64,000 nucleotides of DNA from an uncultured Bacilli bacterium (GTDB lineage: Bacteria; Bacillota_I; Bacilli_A; RF39; UBA660), in the NCBI GenBank assembly GCA_947626275.1, contig CANQRL010000009.1:7232-71231 (forward strand), given 5' to 3'. The notes under the pieces are model-generated. The model saw nothing but the letters and a program-made list of their open reading frames with translations, ran no database searches and was not told the origin of the DNA. The position numbers and the translations under genes are program-made. Below are positions 18,211-56,615 of this stretch, piece by piece; position 1 is the first letter of the stretch, and each line of letters begins with the position of its first letter.

Positions 18211-18440
18211 AGAAAAACGAGGAACAAGAGGAGTATTTGAAGAAAACTTTTAAGAGAGGAAGAGTCATCGGCTGAAAACTTTTCTAAAGAATATTCAAAG
18301 AAGGTAGCTTGGGAGTTGAATATCTGAATAGAGTAGGATATTTCGTTAGCAGCGTTAATGCTTTCAAGGTAATCGAAAGATTATGAATAAAGGTGGTACC
18401 ACGACTATTCGTCCTTTAGGGATGATGGTCGTGTTTTTTT
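18211..18440 (+). ncRNA. T-box riboswitch leader (probable Val specifier GUC)
   Basis: AGAGAGG...GAAGAGUCA region (codon GUC at 18264-18266 followed by A). Conserved T-box sequence AAAGGUGGUACCACG at 18388-18403. Terminator helix ACGAC.../...GGUCGU with a U7 tract at 18401-18440. Lies upstream of valS. Confidence 0.7.
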
Positions 18441-42069: not shown

Positions 42070-43284
42070 ATGAATATATTTGAAATGTTAATCCTCAATA
42101 TCATTTTGATATCTTTTCCTCTATTTTGTTATCTACTTTATATCGTAGCGAATAAAAATGTTAGTAGAAGAGAAAAGGATTTCCTTTTTGACTTCGTCCT
42201 AGTTTCTTCTTCTTTTTTGTTAATTCATTATGGCAATTATTTTGAAAATGTCCTTTTATCCTTCTTTCTAGGAGGTACTGTCTTTTTAGCGTTATCTAAA
42301 AATAGATACTTTATTTCGCTTGTTTTAGAAGGGGTTGTCATTAGCTCTTATTATCCTGATTTGAAAAGCCTTCTCTATTTTTCTATCTTCTATTTTGTTT
42401 TTGATATCTTTGTGTTCCTTTATCATAAACATCCATGGAAACGATTTTCTTTTTTTAAAATCTATCTTTTTCTCTATAGTGCGGCTCTTATCTTGTGGAG
42501 ATTCTTATTCCATCAAACGGGGTTAGGCTATTCTATTTTATTGATTGGTATCTTTATCATTTTTATGAATCTATCGCTTATTTTGTTAGTACAAGGGGAA
42601 AAGGTTATGAAAAACCATCTCGAATTTCAAGAATTACAAAAGGAAAAGCAAATTCGTCTATCTCTTTTTAAAATTACCCATGAGATTAAAAATCCCGTTG
42701 CGGTATGTAAAGCTTACTTAGACATGTTTGATGTCGATAATGTCGAACATGCGAGAAAATATGTTCCGATTATCCAAAAAGAGATTGAAAGATTGCTTTT
42801 ATTGTTACAAGACTTTTTACTTGTTAATAAGTCCAATATGAAATATGAAATTATGGACGTCAATATGCTTTTAGAAGATGTTTTAAAGGACATTCGTCCT
42901 TTGATGGAGGAACACCAAATTTCTTTTAAAGTCAATACGATTGATGATGAATTATTCATTAGTGGGGACTATAATCGCCTAAATCAGGTATTTGTCAATC
43001 TTTTAAAAAATAGTATTGAAGCGAATGCGAAAACGATTCAGTTAAAGACCAATTTGACGAGTAAAATATTGGAAGTTCAAATCATCGATGATGGCGAAGG
43101 AATCAGTAGTGAAATTTTAGATAAGATAAAAGAGCCTTTTTATACGACTAAACCACGAGGTTCTGGACTGGGAGTATCCCTATCGAATGAAATTATTCAT
43201 GCCCATAGTGGAAAGCTAGAATATCAATCGAAAATGGGAGAGGGAACGAGTGTCAAAATTACGTTACCTCTTTACGTATTATAG
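42070..43284 (+). CDS. orphan membrane sensor histidine kinase (no adjacent response regulator)
   Basis: ~6 N-terminal TM helices. H-box ITHEIKNP, N-box LLKNSIEAN, G1 DDGEGI, G2 GSGLG. RBS GGTGA. Confidence 0.85.
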   Translation: MNIFEMLILNIILISFPLFCYLLYIVANKNVSRREKDFLFDFVLVSSSFLLIHYGNYFENVLLSFFLGGTVFLALSKNRYFISLVLEGVVISSYYPDLKSLLYFSIFYFVFDIFVFLYHKHPWKRFSFFKIYLFLYSAALILWRFLFHQTGLGYSILLIGIFIIFMNLSLILLVQGEKVMKNHLEFQELQKEKQIRLSLFKITHEIKNPVAVCKAYLDMFDVDNVEHARKYVPIIQKEIERLLLLLQDFLLVNKSNMKYEIMDVNMLLEDVLKDIRPLMEEHQISFKVNTIDDELFISGDYNRLNQVFVNLLKNSIEANAKTIQLKTNLTSKILEVQIIDDGEGISSEILDKIKEPFYTTKPRGSGLGVSLSNEIIHAHSGKLEYQSKMGEGTSVKITLPLYVL

Positions 43285-43325: not shown

Positions 43326-44822
43326 ATGAAACCTTTTGTACTTTGTATTATGGATGGAGTAGGAGAAAGAGAAGAAATTCATGGGAACGCTGTTAAGCAA
43401 GCCCATACTCCTACGTTAGATATGTTAAAAGAAAGATATGGATTTTCCACACTAGAAGCGAGTGGAGTGAAAGTTGGTCTTCCCAAGGGGCAAATGGGAA
43501 ATAGTGAGGTAGGACACATGAATATTGGGGCTGGAAGAATTATTTATCAGCCTCTAGAATTGATTAATCATGCTATCGAAAATGGAACTTTCTTTCAAAA
43601 TGAAGAAATTTTGAAAGTGATGAACCATGTGAAAGAACATCATTCAAAACTACATATCATGGGATTAATCAGCGATGGTGGGGTACATTCTACGGTTTAT
43701 CATTTACTTGCTCTACTAGATATGTGCAAACAAAACAATGTAGAAAGAATTTACCTTCATCTTTGTACAGATGGAAGAGATGTGGATCCTCATAGTGCCT
43801 ATACTTATATTTCGATGGTAGAAGAGAAATTAAAAGAAACCGGTGGTGTCATCGCAACAGTGGGCGGTCGGTATTATACGATGGATAGGGATAATAACTA
43901 TGACCGTTTAAAGAAGGGGTATGATGCCATTGTTAATGGGGTTGGACCGAAACATTCCTCTGTGAAAGAATTTATTGAGGAAAGCTATGCGAAACAGATT
44001 ACCGATGAATTTTTGATTCCAACCGTTTTTGATGAGAGTGGATTCCTAGAAGAAAATGATGGATTTATGACCTTTAATTTTCGAAAAGATCGGTTAAGAG
44101 AGCTATTTACAGCGATTACTAATCCAGAGTTTCATGAAATGGAAGTAAAAAGATTTTCTAATTTAGCGGTATTAACGATGTTACCAGTCGTAGAATCCGT
44201 GAAAGCTCCTCATGCTTTTGCTGATCCAAATCCTCAAAATATTTTAGGGGAGTATTTAGAGGAGAAGGGACTAACCCAACTTCGAATTGCGGAAACAGAA
44301 AAATATGCCCATGTTACTTTTTTCTTTGATGGTGGAAAAGAAGTAGATTATAGGGGAGAAAAGAAGATTTTAATTCCTTCTCCTAAAGTAGCTACTTATG
44401 ATTTAAAGCCTGAGATGAGTGCTTATACGGTAACAGAAGAACTAGTAAAAGCATTACCGGATTTTGATGTTGTTATTGTCAACTATGCAAATGGGGATAT
44501 GGTAGGTCATACAGGCGTGATGGAAGCGGCTATTAAGGCTGTCGAAGTAGTTGATGAATGTATTGGAAAAGTATATGAGAAAGTAATGGAATTAGGTGGT
44601 TGCATGATTGTGACAGCCGATCATGGAAATAGTGATACGATGTTAGATGAAAATGACAACGTTGTCACGAGTCATTCTACGAGTGTTGTCCCATTTATTG
44701 TTACGAAAGATAACATTCGAGTAAGAAATGGTAAACTAGGGGATATCGCACCAACAATGCTCTCTTTATTAGGATTAGAAATTCCTTCTGATATGACAGG
44801 AGAGGTTCTCATTGATAGCTAG
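43326..44822 (+). CDS. gpmI: 2,3-bisphosphoglycerate-independent phosphoglycerate mutase
   Basis: CIMDGVG, GNSEVGHMNIGAG (catalytic Ser), TADHGN, TSHS metal ligands all present. Confidence 0.95.
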   Translation: MKPFVLCIMDGVGEREEIHGNAVKQAHTPTLDMLKERYGFSTLEASGVKVGLPKGQMGNSEVGHMNIGAGRIIYQPLELINHAIENGTFFQNEEILKVMNHVKEHHSKLHIMGLISDGGVHSTVYHLLALLDMCKQNNVERIYLHLCTDGRDVDPHSAYTYISMVEEKLKETGGVIATVGGRYYTMDRDNNYDRLKKGYDAIVNGVGPKHSSVKEFIEESYAKQITDEFLIPTVFDESGFLEENDGFMTFNFRKDRLRELFTAITNPEFHEMEVKRFSNLAVLTMLPVVESVKAPHAFADPNPQNILGEYLEEKGLTQLRIAETEKYAHVTFFFDGGKEVDYRGEKKILIPSPKVATYDLKPEMSAYTVTEELVKALPDFDVVIVNYANGDMVGHTGVMEAAIKAVEVVDECIGKVYEKVMELGGCMIVTADHGNSDTMLDENDNVVTSHSTSVVPFIVTKDNIRVRNGKLGDIAPTMLSLLGLEIPSDMTGEVLIDS

Positions 44823-44823
44823 T

Positions 44824-45363
44824 ATGGGAGTTACTTTAACAGAGGCATTAGAAAGTTACCAACAAATGATTTCTAATTACTCTGTTTTTTCCTTTATTCT
44901 AATTGCGATGGTTGTTGTTGGGATCCTTTTATGGGTCAACCGGAATACCTCTACTACCTATTACTTTACTTGGGGCATCTTTTTCTTATTAGTTGTCATG
45001 ACTATCTACTTTCGAAGAATGGAACTACTAGATCATATCGATACGATATTCCAAGCAGATTTTTATCAAAACCTCTACTTTTATCATTGGAATATGATCT
45101 TTGCTTTCTTTCTTCTTCATTCCCAATTATCTTCTCATCGTATCTCTGAAGTATCAAAGATGCTTTGCCTTTTCTTTTTCATCGCTTTGTCAACGAATTG
45201 TGTTTTCCAATTTTTTATCAGTGATTATGTAGGAAATACGCCTATCCTTGTCCTTGGAAATACATATTCTATGATTGTTGTAGGAGACTTATTATCGTTT
45301 GCTTTTTATTTATTAGTAATCGTTTCTCATCTTGTTCCATACCATCCAAATAAAGCAAAATAA
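44824..45363 (+). CDS. hypothetical polytopic membrane protein
   Basis: 5-6 TM helices. Start uncertain: TTG at 44812 or ATG at 44824. Confidence 0.45.
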   Translation: MGVTLTEALESYQQMISNYSVFSFILIAMVVVGILLWVNRNTSTTYYFTWGIFFLLVVMTIYFRRMELLDHIDTIFQADFYQNLYFYHWNMIFAFFLLHSQLSSHRISEVSKMLCLFFFIALSTNCVFQFFISDYVGNTPILVLGNTYSMIVVGDLLSFAFYLLVIVSHLVPYHPNKAK

Positions 45364-45433
45364 ATGTGTCATTTTGACAAAAACTAGAGAACATGTTATA
45401 ATGGTGAACGTCTTGTAAAAAGGAGTGAATTGT

Positions 45434-46015
45434 TTGAAAATTACTAGCGTTAATTTAGTCGTAAGCGCAGTTAGAAGGAGTCAATATCCGACGGATGGAA
45501 AGTCAGAATTCTTGTTAGTTGGTAGATCGAATGTAGGGAAGAGTAGTTTTATCAATACCCTAATCAATCGAAAAAACTTTGCGCGGACATCAGCGACCCC
45601 TGGAAAAACCCAAACGATTAATTTTTATTTGGTCAATGAAGATTTCTATTTGGTAGATGCTCCTGGATACGGTTTTGCGGCTTTAAGTAAGCAGAAACAA
45701 AAGAAATTTGGCTTGATGATGGAAGATTATTTACAAAATAGACCGAATCTAAAACAAGTATTTATGTTAGTCGATTTTCGTCATCGACCTACGAATGACG
45801 ATTTGATGATGTATAATTTCTTAAAGCATTATAAAATTCCGGTTACGATTGTCGCAACGAAAACGGATAAAGTAAAAATTACCCTTCATCAAAAACAAAG
45901 AGCAACGATTTTAGCGGATTTGGATTTGGTTGTTGGTGATGATTTTACGATGTTTTCCAATGTTACGAAATTAGGAAAAAATGAAATTTATCAAAAGATA
46001 GAAAGAACGATGTAG
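45434..46015 (+). CDS. engB: ribosome biogenesis GTP-binding protein YihA/YsxC (EngB)
   Basis: GRSNVGKSSFIN G1 motif, DAPGYG, TKTDK. A TTG start at 45434 with AGGAG 8 nt upstream matches the B. subtilis YsxC N-terminus better than the track's GTG at 45425. Confidence 0.85.
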   Translation: MKITSVNLVVSAVRRSQYPTDGKSEFLLVGRSNVGKSSFINTLINRKNFARTSATPGKTQTINFYLVNEDFYLVDAPGYGFAALSKQKQKKFGLMMEDYLQNRPNLKQVFMLVDFRHRPTNDDLMMYNFLKHYKIPVTIVATKTDKVKITLHQKQRATILADLDLVVGDDFTMFSNVTKLGKNEIYQKIERTM

Positions 46016-46059
46016 TTCCCATCTATCTTTTTTTTCATACACTACTATTGGGTGGTAGG

Positions 46060-46518
46060 GTGAAAATAGAAGAGAAGGAAGACGAGTTAGTTCTCTTTTT
46101 AAAAAAATCAGAAATCGAAAATTTTTGTTTCGAAGATTTAGAGGCGATTGAAGACTCTTTTCGTTCCTTATTTCTAAATTTAGAAGAGTACTATCATATT
46201 ACGATAGAGGGATTTTACAATATCCATGTCTATCTAGATCCAGAAGAAGGAATGGTTTTAACGCTTCAACAGGAAGATTTGGACTATTATCCTTTTCATC
46301 AGGTAGAAATGCGAATTGTGAAAGAAGAGACGAGCTTTTTATATCAAGTAGAAGAGCCACTAGATTTTTTAACTCCTGATTTTGACATCTATGTGTATAA
46401 AAATCATTTTTATGTGAAAAAAAAGACTTCCAAAGAGGTATATTCTTCCTATGAATGGGGAAAACTAATTTATGAAAAGACCAATATCATATTAGAAAGA
46501 GGCAAATTGTTGACATAA
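46060..46518 (+). CDS. possible short MecA-like adaptor protein
   Basis: N-terminus MKIEEKEDELVLF resembles MecA MEIERINEHTVKF. Acidic middle region and a C-terminal YVYKNHFYV similar to the MecA C-terminal domain. GTG start after GGTGG. Terminator at 46525-46555. Confidence 0.4.
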   Translation: MKIEEKEDELVLFLKKSEIENFCFEDLEAIEDSFRSLFLNLEEYYHITIEGFYNIHVYLDPEEGMVLTLQQEDLDYYPFHQVEMRIVKEETSFLYQVEEPLDFLTPDFDIYVYKNHFYVKKKTSKEVYSSYEWGKLIYEKTNIILERGKLLT

Positions 46519-46611
46519 ACGTAAAGAAAATCATGTATTTTCTTTATTTTTTTTCCTTTTTCTCAAAAATTTGATATAATAGTTTTGAATAATAAGAATG
46601 GAGAGAGGGAT

Positions 46612-48210
46612 ATGCCTGGAAGTGGAAGAAAATCAATTTTACTATTAATGAATGGATTTGGAATGGAAGTTCCAAAGTCTTTTAATGTTTATACAGCGGC
46701 TCTTATGCCATCTTTGGCAAAGCTATCCAATTATTATCCATTTGTGTCTTTATTTGCAAGTGGTACAGAAATAGGATTAAACAAGGGACAATTATCTAGC
46801 TTTCGGGCAGGTTATTTGGCTTTTAGTTCCAATGGAAAACCAAATAAGAAGTCGAATGCCGTACAATCCCATATCGCAGCGAATACGTTTGCGACTAACC
46901 CAGTCATTGCCAATTCTATCAATTATGCGGTAGAGCATAACTCTAGATTACACATTTTCTTTAGTATCGGAGAACGTACAGAAGAAATTCAGTTTCAACA
47001 GTTGAAGACGTATGGGGAATTAGCGGCTCAATGTGGCGTTAAAGATATTTGTGTTCATATCTTTTTAGGCGATAACAGTGTTCAAAATATGAAAGTATCT
47101 AACCTATGGCTTAAGAACTTAAAATATCATGTACTCAACTTTGTACCACAGATGAGATTGGTATCCATTGCTGGACGAAAATATTTAACCGATGCACCAA
47201 AAGATCAAAAAATTGCTTATTATCGTATGATTGTAAGTGGAGTTGGAGAAGTTTGGACCAATTATGAAGAAACCCTTACGAAAAAATATCAAGGAAAAGA
47301 AACAGACGATACGATGGGAGGATTCCTTGTTGTCCGTGAAAATGTCCTTCGCGAATATGATAGTGTCATGAATTTCAACTATGATAACGGTGTTGGTGCG
47401 GAATATTTAGATATCATTCAAAAACCAGCTGAGTTCTTCCCAGCAGGAGGAAAAATTCCACTAAGTGTTGCGACCAATTCTCTTTTTGCTATCGCCGATA
47501 ATCCAAATATTCCTTATGCTTTTGAATCAGAATTACCTCAACATTTCTTCTTTGAAACGATTCCTAACGATAAAAAAATTTTATTAATTGCTGATAAGGA
47601 TCGACTTCAATATATCAGTAAATGTTTAAATGGATTTAGAGATCAATTTAAGCCAAATGTTCAAGTATGGCCAATTGAGGATAAAGAGAAACGGTTTGAA
47701 TTGATGTGTCAATATTTAGCGGCCTATATCAATCAAGATGCTTACGATTTAATTATTGCCGACTGTGATTTATATAATGAGCAAATAGAACCAAAAACCG
47801 TAGAACGATTGAGAAAGAACATGCAAGGTGTGGATAATGTATTAAACGTTGCCTATACTAGAGGAATGGAAAAAGGATATACGCTTTATGCTACTTCATT
47901 CTATGGAATTAAGACGAAACTTTTATTGACAACGACGTATGAAGAGATTGACTTCTCACAAAAGACCCCATTCTTAGTAGCAGGAAAAGATATTTCTAGA
48001 ACCAATACTTCTTTACAAATCGATGGAAACATTACGCAAGTCGCCCAGATTATGTTACGAAATCTTGGTGTCAATGTAGATGCTCCACTTGTTGGAGAAA
48101 AAGCGGTAGAAAAAGTAAAAAAGAAGATGCTTCCTGTTTTAATTATCATTCTAGCTATCTTTGCTATCTTTGTTGTCGGTGCATTACTATATGTTACAGG
48201 TGTTATTTAA
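46612..48210 (+). CDS. membrane tail-anchored, catalytically degenerate iPGM-like (metalloenzyme-superfamily) pseudoenzyme
   Basis: Aligns by eye to the true gpmI in this window, but with the catalytic and metal residues replaced: LLLMNGFG vs CIMDGVG, GQLSSFRAGY vs GQMGNSEVGH, ATSFYG vs TADHGN. A C-terminal TM helix (LPVLIIILAIFAIFVVGALLYV). Own TGATATAAT promoter at 46572-46580 and RBS GGAGAGAGGG. Terminator at 48211-48235. Confidence 0.6.
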   Translation: MPGSGRKSILLLMNGFGMEVPKSFNVYTAALMPSLAKLSNYYPFVSLFASGTEIGLNKGQLSSFRAGYLAFSSNGKPNKKSNAVQSHIAANTFATNPVIANSINYAVEHNSRLHIFFSIGERTEEIQFQQLKTYGELAAQCGVKDICVHIFLGDNSVQNMKVSNLWLKNLKYHVLNFVPQMRLVSIAGRKYLTDAPKDQKIAYYRMIVSGVGEVWTNYEETLTKKYQGKETDDTMGGFLVVRENVLREYDSVMNFNYDNGVGAEYLDIIQKPAEFFPAGGKIPLSVATNSLFAIADNPNIPYAFESELPQHFFFETIPNDKKILLIADKDRLQYISKCLNGFRDQFKPNVQVWPIEDKEKRFELMCQYLAAYINQDAYDLIIADCDLYNEQIEPKTVERLRKNMQGVDNVLNVAYTRGMEKGYTLYATSFYGIKTKLLLTTTYEEIDFSQKTPFLVAGKDISRTNTSLQIDGNITQVAQIMLRNLGVNVDAPLVGEKAVEKVKKKMLPVLIIILAIFAIFVVGALLYVTGVI

Positions 48211-48299
48211 GGTATTCGAAGGAATACATTTTTTGCTAAAATGATTGCTGAAGAATAGAGAAAATGGTATACTTTTGATAAGACGATAGGCGGGATTCT

Positions 48300-56264: not shown

Positions 56265-56615
56265 TATTTCGGGCAAACGCTGTATAGGATACTATATAGA
56301 GGAAAGTCCATGCTCGCACAGTCTGTAATGATTGTAGTGTTCGTGTAGGGGGAAAAAATAACCCCTAGTAGTTTTTACTAACGGCTCTGGAAAGACCTAA
56401 GTCTTCGGATATGGTCAAGTACAGTATAAAAGTGCTATAGCGACGATGCCCTGGAGAAATCTAGGGAGTGGAACGTAGTAAACCCCGCGAGCGAGAAACC
56501 CAAATTTTGGTAGGGGAGCTCTAACGAAGGAAACAAACGGAGTTAGGGACCAAGCAATTGGTAGATAAATGTTTGCCACCCTAGTGGTACAGAACATGGC
56601 TTATGAAGTGTTATT
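56261..56615 (+). ncRNA. rnpB: RNase P RNA, type B (Firmicute type)
   Basis: AGAGGAAAGUCCAUGCUCGCACAG, GUCUUCGGAUAUGG, GUGGAACGUAGUAAACCCCGCGAGCGAGAAACCCAAAUUUUGGUAGGGGAGC, ACAGAACAUGGCUUAUGAAG all match B. subtilis rnpB blocks. A P1 helix pairs 56261-56270 with 56605-56614. Same gpsB-rnpB neighbourhood as B. subtilis. Confidence 0.85.

Follow-up and report, generated by a model that had tools for sequence, protein, structure and literature searches.

We analysed a window of 64,000 nucleotides from an uncultured Bacilli bacterium (assembly GCA_947626275.1, contig CANQRL010000009.1, positions 7,232 to 71,231 of the forward strand), in which a gene at 46612..48210 (+) encodes a protein of 532 residues (stop codon included in the coordinates) related to cofactor-independent phosphoglycerate mutase (iPGM). 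We refer to this protein as pseudo-iPGM. The list of open reading frames (ORFs), BLASTP, Pfam and NCBIfam profiles, an AlphaFold2 model compared by Foldseek, and 62 homologue clusters were used to place it, and together they indicate a conserved, undescribed family that derives from iPGM and has a new architecture and, by prediction, a new location. The gene lies on the core chromosome, in a run that begins with PFOR, rlmN, prpC, prkC, rsgA, rpe, tig, ftsW (minus strand) and genes for an EIIB-like protein and a histidine kinase. This is followed by gpmI, a membrane-protein gene, engB, a small gene that we call p156, pseudo-iPGM, another membrane-protein gene, a LysM-GH25 gene, spoIVA, and ponA and recU (both minus strand).

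Pseudo-iPGM aligns from end to end with the product of the gpmI gene of the same window (43326..44822, +) over 513 columns, at 22% identity (BLASTP, E 1e-25). The Pfam iPGM_N profile (PF06415) matches it with 47.7 bits, above the gathering threshold of 27; this match, at residues 84-257 (46861..47382, +), marks the transferase-domain core and holds three invariant residues specific to the pseudo-iPGM family, Glu213, Trp215 and Phe238. The Metalloenzyme profile (PF01676) reaches 18.6 bits, below its threshold of 24.3. Against the equivalog model TIGR01307 pseudo-iPGM scores 91.3 bits, below the cutoff of 330.65, whereas the window gpmI scores 645.6 bits and carries all catalytic motifs of an intact enzyme; against NF003897 pseudo-iPGM scores 48 bits, with a cutoff of 862. 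A profile built from 56 family members matches the iPGM structures of S. aureus, Geobacillus and B. anthracis with E values of 2e-31 to 6e-30. The AlphaFold2 model, built on the family alignment, has a mean predicted local distance difference test score (pLDDT) of 91, and its best 22 Foldseek matches in the PDB are iPGMs throughout (E 1e-30 to 4e-24, template modelling (TM) score up to 0.65). In this model an alkaline-phosphatase-like phosphatase domain bears the inserted transferase domain, so that pseudo-iPGM is a full-length iPGM homologue predicted to keep the complete two-domain fold. The TM scores are 0.65 and 0.62 for the substrate-bound, closed structures 4my4 and 1ejj, against 0.51 for 2ify, which we take to be an open-form structure, and 0.48 for apo forms of the C. 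elegans enzyme; these values hint that the two-domain clamp is modelled shut.

The protein is one of many. A search of 5.8 billion proteins returned 62 homologue clusters at 40-91% identity, nearly all 527-536 residues long; two bear Joint Genome Institute (JGI) labels of the 'phosphoglyceromutase' type, one is named 'hypothetical protein', and the rest are unnamed. In contigs from one genome per GTDB species we found 21 loci, all but two mislabelled bins being metagenome-assembled genomes (MAGs) of 'uncultured Bacilli bacterium', and the source material was rabbit, mouse, sheep-rumen and other gut samples. Beyond this clade A, which includes the window protein, an exhaustive hidden Markov model search of 1.84 billion representatives gave distant relatives that score above genuine iPGMs. 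Four of these, clade A' (P0064-P0067; 517-542 residues), share the dead motifs and the transmembrane tail described below, P0065 being intermediate. The others, group B (P0070-P0097; loci L022-L097, for example L022:8001-9446), are of about 480 residues with the dead motifs LINGFG, DYKDGY, GEKW and SSLYG; a locus search with a 6-sequence alignment subset recovered 70 group-B loci, from rumen and gut metagenomes, where the group is abundant. Neither Pfam nor NCBIfam holds a dedicated model for the family, and group B falls below every threshold there. The literature on iPGM pseudoenzymes and paralogues and on PF06415 gave no account of an iPGM derivative that is dead and tethered to the membrane, and a survey of bacterial phosphoglycerate mutases reports iPGM paralogues to be rare and lists no dead one (PMC2964296).

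We next consider the residues on which iPGM chemistry depends. The metal and nucleophile set, listed for the C. elegans enzyme, comprises Asp/His/His at site 1 and Asp/Ser/Asp/His at site 2 (PMC5382265). We numbered the metal sites as Asp403/His407/His462 and Asp12/Asp444/His445, with the nucleophile as Ser62 in B. stearothermophilus, equivalent to Ser86 in C. elegans. As substrate-binding residues we took His123, Arg153, Asp154, Arg185, Arg191, Arg261, Arg264 and Lys336, those of the Geobacillus structures 1EJJ and 1O98. The catalytic DETERMINANTS columns were read in an alignment of 158 sequences, comprising 57 of clade A, 4 of clade A', 75 of group B and 22 genuine iPGMs. Seventeen catalytic or substrate positions are invariant in the 22 genuine iPGMs (one of them at 21/22), and the same 17 are replaced across the clade-A, clade-A' and group-B sequences, apart from the Asp12 equivalent in P0065 and the equivalent of Arg185, which the window protein retains.

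In the window protein the metal ligands have changed from Asp12 to Asn14, Asp403 to Asn389, His407 to Glu393, Asp444 to Phe430, His445 to Tyr431 and His462 to Asp447, and none of these six positions is kept in clade A or group B. The nucleophile Ser62 is Phe64 and His66 is Tyr68. Among the substrate contacts, His123 is replaced by Glu, Arg153 by Asn, Asp154 by Ser, Arg191 by Ala, Arg261 by Asp, Arg264 by Val and Lys336 by Arg331 (Asn in group B). The one position retained, Arg189 for Arg185, is Arg in 33/57 clade-A proteins and never in group B. At the Ser62 position, Ser in 22/22 genuine iPGMs, 56/57 clade-A proteins have Phe, and group B has Tyr, Thr, Ile or Leu. Read as motifs, the Asp of DG(V/F)G is Asn14, GNSEVGH has become SSFRAGY, TADHGN has become TSFYGI, and the His of TSHS is Asp447. 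Judged by these residues, pseudo-iPGM is predicted to be dead for iPGM chemistry, and it fits the definition of a pseudoenzyme as a homologue without catalytic residues that is under selection.

The first-pass annotation, made from the nucleotide sequence without database searches, had suggested that such a protein might sense 3-phosphoglycerate (3-PG) or 2-phosphoglycerate (2-PG), or act as a scaffold, in a sporulating organism. As a sensor, the dead fold would report glycolytic or forespore 3-phosphoglycerate (3-PGA) status at the membrane. It would profit from the retained fold and two-domain clamp, from Arg189 and from Arg331 at the Lys336 position in the window protein, from a genuine gpmI 1.8 kb upstream in most clade-A loci, and from the spoIVA gene that the organism carries. 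We nevertheless regard the sensor as very unlikely, given that six of the phosphoglycerate contacts (His123, Arg153, Asp154, Arg191, Arg261 and Arg264) have become non-basic and the metal-bound site is gone, while the Arg185 and Lys336 equivalents fade within clade A or in group B as described above. The promoter, moreover, is sigma-A-like and not of the sporulation-sigma type, and neither gpmI nor any sporulation gene is associated with the distant members. What tied the gene to sporulation was spoIVA, 2.5 kb downstream in the window within a syntenic housekeeping region; its distance and orientation vary, being reversed in L018 and L020, and the distant members stand in unrelated housekeeping contexts, so we do not uphold this link. 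The scaffold or binding part of the suggestion fared better and agrees with the reading that we favour, namely a non-catalytic binding protein.

The replacement residues are themselves conserved across the family, as Asn, Phe or Tyr, Tyr, and Leu-Tyr. Sixteen residues are common to clade A and group B and unlike iPGM: L12, N14, E19, S23, M32, F44, Y68, L152, E213, W215, F238, L291, N340, S429, L430 and Y431. The residues in common with iPGM are structural glycines, prolines and core positions (G15, G17, P33, H114, H149, D250, G341, D408, G432 and P453). The 16 shared derived residues indicate a single origin of the dead lineage, and they point to a rebuilt, metal-free site rather than to random decay.

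A rebuilt site could also belong to a new enzyme. Pseudo-iPGM might have become a metal-independent enzyme whose substrate is associated with the membrane, for instance a precursor of the cell envelope or the head group of a lipid, with Asn14, Glu19, Ser23, Tyr68, Asn340, Ser429, Tyr431, Glu213, Trp215 and Asp250 as a candidate site. Conservation of the replacement residues, some of them polar, is strong, the ratio of non-synonymous to synonymous substitution rates (dN/dS) is as low as in the active enzyme, and tethering would suit a lipid-linked substrate; LtaS and EptA are alkaline-phosphatase-superfamily proteins that act on membrane substrates. Yet no candidate nucleophile is kept across clades A and A' and group B: the Ser62 position is Phe or Tyr, and the clade-A residues Ser62 and Ser63 are absent in group B. 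To our knowledge, all known catalytic members of the superfamily use the metal site, which is gone here, and no enzyme-family profile of Pfam or NCBIfam matches. We consider a new enzymatic activity unlikely.

The second departure from iPGM is at the C-terminus. The segment LPVLIIILAIFAIFVVGALLYV, residues 507-528 (48130..48195, +), follows KVKKK, is predicted as a transmembrane anchor by hydropathy and by a helix at residues 506-529 of the AlphaFold2 model, and is the sole hydrophobic 19-mer of the window protein, with only four residues beyond it. In all 61 clade-A and clade-A' proteins a tail 19-mer exceeds a Kyte-Doolittle value of 1.6 (median 3.07), which no 19-mer elsewhere in the protein does (0/61), and the hydrophobic tail stands after a run of Lys. 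Pseudo-iPGM has no signal peptide, since the first beta-strand of the fold already forms its N-terminus. A single C-terminal segment, no N-terminal signal and a positive flank are the sequence features of a tail-anchored protein. Because a signal peptide is lacking and positive charges precede the helix, the predicted topology is that of a tail anchor that leaves the iPGM-like body on the cytoplasmic side.

Group B has no transmembrane helix. Its proteins end in a basic amphipathic tail of about 12 residues, for example KKKGFLxxLFKK, with a median net charge of +3 against -2 in genuine iPGMs, and with a higher hydrophobic moment. Two different C-terminal devices may thus serve the same membrane targeting in clades A/A' and in group B, and if both tails do target the membrane, membrane proximity would be part of the function of the family. 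In design, the predicted tail helix of clades A/A' and the amphipathic tail of group B resemble tail-anchored proteins and the targeting helices of the MinD/FtsA type, respectively; these proteins have no homology to the pseudo-iPGM family.

The gene is maintained by purifying selection. Between orthologue pairs, dN/dS calculated by the Nei-Gojobori method is 0.03-0.15 for pseudo-iPGM, compared with 0.06-0.24 for gpmI, 0.00-0.06 for engB and 0.10-0.41 for p156 in the same genome pairs, values that are approximate since dS is often near 1. That the gene is a functionless duplicate in decay or an annotation artefact, for which the lost catalytic residues could be cited, is vanishingly improbable: the frame is intact at 470-545 residues in more than 130 homologues, dN/dS is low, and promoter and anchor are conserved, as are the replacement residues. 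Gene decay was excluded on these grounds. Here, as in the end-to-end alignment with gpmI, the replaced catalytic motifs, the membrane tail, and the absence of a described family in the databases and searchable literature, our results agree with what the first-pass annotation had claimed, and the profile searches, the structural comparison and the survey of relatives point the same way. Loss of the nucleophile and the metal ligands is family-wide, apart from the Asp12 equivalent in P0065.

The gene also appears to have transcription signals of its own, as the earlier annotation had read. The longest frame opens at TTG 46585, and ATG 46612 is the likely start, because the ribosome-binding site GGAGAGAGGG (46600..46609, +) precedes it by 3-12 nt, TTG 46585 lies only 5 nt past the -10 hexamer, and the family alignment begins at the ATG. 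The same GGAG/GGGTG element occurs in related loci. The extended -10 element of sigma-A type, TGATATAAT (46572..46580, +), can be read directly in the sequence. Its TGnTAnAAT box is kept upstream of the start in 20 of the 21 clade-A loci scanned (L006 and L018 lay outside the scan), including loci in which the protein is only 38-47% identical; it is absent in L027. The distance from box to start is 35-43 nt in 19/21 of these loci and 77 nt in L001, by automatic start assignment.

Upstream, an AT-rich 9-bp hairpin with a T-run, AAAGAAAAT-CATGT-ATTTTCTTT, follows the p156 stop (46523..46555, +) and is a probable terminator separating the engB-p156 unit from the pseudo-iPGM gene; the same hairpin with its T-run stands in L001-L005, L007 and L010. 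Downstream of the pseudo-iPGM stop, a 6-bp hairpin GTATTC-GAAG-GAATAC followed by A and six T (48212..48234, +) is a probable intrinsic terminator, and comparable hairpins with T-runs occur in L001-L008, L010, L012, L018 and L019. Both types recur in about half of the loci. A consensus promoter and terminator scanner called neither the pseudo-iPGM promoter nor either AT-rich hairpin; this scanner needs a -35 match and GC-rich stems, and it missed these signals because the -35 is poor and the stems are AT-rich. On these signals, the gene is predicted to be transcribed alone from a sigma-A-type extended -10 promoter.

We then asked what the neighbourhood says about a partner. The gene engB/ysxC (45425..46015, +), encoding a ribosome-biogenesis GTPase, is well supported (216.7 bits for TIGR03598, whose cutoff is 124). 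Directly upstream of pseudo-iPGM lies p156 (46048..46518, +), a protein of 156 residues with a putative MecA-like fold. The first-pass annotation had named engB and a MecA-like gene as neighbours; engB is confirmed, and MecA finds no support from sequence. Across 19 orthologues p156 has no Pfam match at E <=1, MecA (PF05389) included; its profile retrieves no MecA chain from the PDB sequences at E <=10; and an hhalign comparison with a B. subtilis MecA sequence gave a probability of 1.6%. The structure model of p156 is of low confidence (pLDDT 66). MecA and YpbH, the ClpC adaptors, have about 218 residues and an acidic linker, whereas p156 is shorter and without such a linker.

The adjacency is nonetheless close. 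Wherever a clade-A locus includes upstream sequence, p156 is the gene immediately before pseudo-iPGM, L019 excepted; it is not in that place in the clade-A' locus L027. It is a tighter neighbour than engB, staying adjacent in L015 despite two genes inserted between engB and p156. Pseudo-iPGM could accordingly be a membrane dock for a MecA-like p156, and hence for ClpC/ClpP, or could be the dedicated substrate of p156. We hold this to be quite unlikely: the hairpin with its T-run and the promoter of pseudo-iPGM part the two genes, and the fold of p156 is modelled poorly and goes undetected by MecA profiles. Searches with hhalign and hmmsearch found no p156 relative beside the pseudo-iPGM gene in group B, clade A' or L019. 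About 19/21 clade-A loci keep the gene order from ftsW to pseudo-iPGM, and with synteny across the whole 12-kb region, the adjacency to p156, like that to engB, may simply be inherited.

The genuine gpmI gene invites a similar thought, namely that pseudo-iPGM regulates or anchors the active GpmI at the membrane. The two genes are syntenic in 20/23 clade-A/A' loci, and pseudoenzymes commonly regulate active paralogues. Bacterial iPGMs, on the other hand, are described as monomers, the solved iPGM structures matched by the model contain iPGM either by itself or together with a small ligand or peptide, and gpmI is absent from the neighbourhood in L018, L019 and every group-B locus; we judge a role on GpmI to be highly improbable. 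In L018 (JAFXPU010000024.1, 5036-6880), from a sheep-rumen MAG, gpmI is missing from the otherwise conserved position flanked by the histidine-kinase and membrane-protein genes, and the dead paralogue is present.

The reading that best accounts for these results is that pseudo-iPGM is a non-catalytic binding protein on the cytoplasmic side of the membrane, where it would work through a remodelled cleft or clamp as an adaptor, scaffold or receptor; we consider this probable. As a tail-anchored pseudoenzyme it would keep the two-domain iPGM fold, bind no catalytic metal pair and form no phosphoserine, the basic residues that hold phosphoglycerate being gone. The single C-terminal helix, with the Lys cluster on its N-terminal side, would hold the whole domain at the cytoplasmic membrane face. 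The old active-site cleft would be rebuilt as a conserved metal-free pocket lined by Asn14, Glu19, Ser23, Phe64, Tyr68, Asn340, Ser429, Leu/Phe430 and Tyr431, and what this pocket would recognise at the membrane is another protein, or a ligand that is not phosphoglycerate, with pseudo-iPGM acting as adaptor or scaffold. Computation shows the iPGM fold and the hydrophobic anchor, a promoter that is conserved, purifying selection, and catalytic determinants that are lost; from these results we infer membrane location, topology and binding as the mode of action.

Several points weigh against this account. Support for the expression, location, metal content and lack of activity of pseudo-iPGM is computational throughout. 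The pocket is deduced from homology to the active-site positions of iPGM, and its conserved polar residues could equally serve an unrecognised catalysis. For group B, the amphipathic reading of the tail draws solely on composition and hydrophobic moment. In addition, no partner emerges from gene neighbourhoods: when ORFs were called in 98 loci and clustered by all-versus-all BLASTP, no neighbour was common to clade A (engB, p156), group B and clade A'. Group B stands directly after map in 37/68 loci and also has genes for RecD2-like, ClpX-like AAA or DUF1538/PII proteins or rdgB as neighbours; clade A' has DUF308 or infC-rpmI-rplT as neighbours, and some distant members lie near nrdDG or DUF2130.

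A more specific version of the binding protein would make the iPGM clamp a membrane receptor. Closure on a new ligand or peptide at the metal-free cleft would recruit p156 and ClpC proteolysis, and group B would act likewise through its amphipathic tail, with a different partner. This version is speculative and we think it distinctly unlikely. If it is true, gut Bacilli would couple the fold of a metabolic enzyme to regulated proteolysis or to control of the envelope, a previously unknown link.

Among known systems, GpmI itself (TIGR01307, EC 5.4.2.12; 1EJJ, 1O98, 4MY4) is the nearest, sharing the full-length two-domain architecture at a profile E value of 2e-31. Pseudo-iPGM differs in its metal, nucleophile and substrate residues and in its score of 91 bits against an equivalog cutoff of 330; GpmI ends in an acidic soluble tail, to which pseudo-iPGM opposes a Lys-rich linker and a transmembrane helix. 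By homology, pseudo-iPGM belongs to the iPGM branch of the alkaline-phosphatase superfamily but lacks every functional hallmark of an iPGM. DeoB (phosphopentomutase) is the next-nearest fold, with an alkaline-phosphatase-like core and an inserted cap (Foldseek E 6e-6 to 1e-4); its TM score is 0.3 compared with 0.65 for iPGM, its cap domain is another one, and it is catalytically active with a metal site. YejM/PbgA (LapC) of Gram-negatives offers an analogy only, the nearest in mode of action, as a membrane-tethered domain of the same superfamily known mainly for binding and regulation. Foldseek gives a weak partial match to 6vat_C (E 9e-4), and YejM/PbgA has five N-terminal transmembrane helices, a periplasmic domain and no iPGM transferase domain, in contrast to the C-terminally anchored, predicted cytoplasmic and metal-site-free pseudo-iPGM. 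At least one study reports YejM as a metalloenzyme (PMC7576196).

The family suggests that the iPGM two-domain clamp has been retained for a purpose that would be non-catalytic, and in its members purifying selection is strong, the cleft is rebuilt without metal, and one or the other of two predicted C-terminal devices serves for membrane targeting. iPGM itself is familiar from textbooks as an enzyme of glycolysis and is a drug target. With a 'phosphoglyceromutase' label on members of the dead family, glycolysis in uncultured gut Bacilli could be wrongly scored as complete, for example in L018; a profile made for the family, used with an exclusion rule, would avoid this error. The family resolves no long-standing question; it is a defined target in the search for new functions at the membrane in a gut lineage about which little is known.

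Other sequences found along the way bear on iPGM evolution more broadly. P0075 (934 residues) and P0172 (737 residues) are intact iPGMs with GNSEVGH and TADHGN motifs to which a transmembrane helix and large additional domains are fused C-terminally; in P0172 the C-terminus contains a signal-peptidase-I-like motif, GDNRDHSADSR. By their sequences, membrane-tethered genuine iPGMs appear to exist as well. P0086, P0087 and P0088 are iPGM homologues with partly degenerate sites, for example EGWG / SASSVGF / SNSSY, which suggests that catalysis has been lost more than once in this fold.

Some loci differ downstream of the gene. In one subclade (L011, L013-L017, L020 and L021) pseudo-iPGM has no terminator, and genes for a YukD-like protein, two WXG100-like proteins and an EssC-like protein of about 1,500 residues begin 4-24 nt on. 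This set (for example L015:9594-15130) reads as a type VIIb secretion cluster, and co-transcription with pseudo-iPGM is possible. A mobile-element or island origin of the window locus was considered and rejected: the profiles of GC content and skew are flat, and on its flanks the locus has core housekeeping genes (rlmN, prpC, prkC, rsgA, rpe, tig, ftsW, ponA and recU).

Further features of the window concern the genes around gpmI and engB. A perfect sigma-70 consensus promoter (TTGACA, 17 nt, TG-n-TATAAT) at 45374-45402 (+) serves engB-p156. Between gpmI and engB, a polytopic membrane protein of 183 residues (44812-45363, +) overlaps the gpmI stop by 11 nt and has a weak, sub-threshold DUF2304 match; it is syntenic in most clade-A loci and fast-evolving (24-77% identity). 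Just before gpmI, a protein of 109 residues (41668-41997, +) joins an N-terminal transmembrane helix to an EIIB(Glc)-type domain of the phosphotransferase system (PTS). An orphan membrane histidine kinase (42070-43284, +) follows directly 3', the pair occurring at this place in all clade-A loci; the EIIB protein may supply sugar status to a two-component sensor. Between rsgA and rpe, an ORF of 792 residues (36110-38488, +) has no Pfam match at E <=1e-5. Rfam places no RNA element near the pseudo-iPGM gene, its only matches in the window being those at 18.2 and 56.3 kb: a T-box leader (18211-18419, +; 116 bits) and a class B RNase P RNA (56265-56607, +; 303 bits), the latter fitting a low-GC Firmicutes/Bacilli host.

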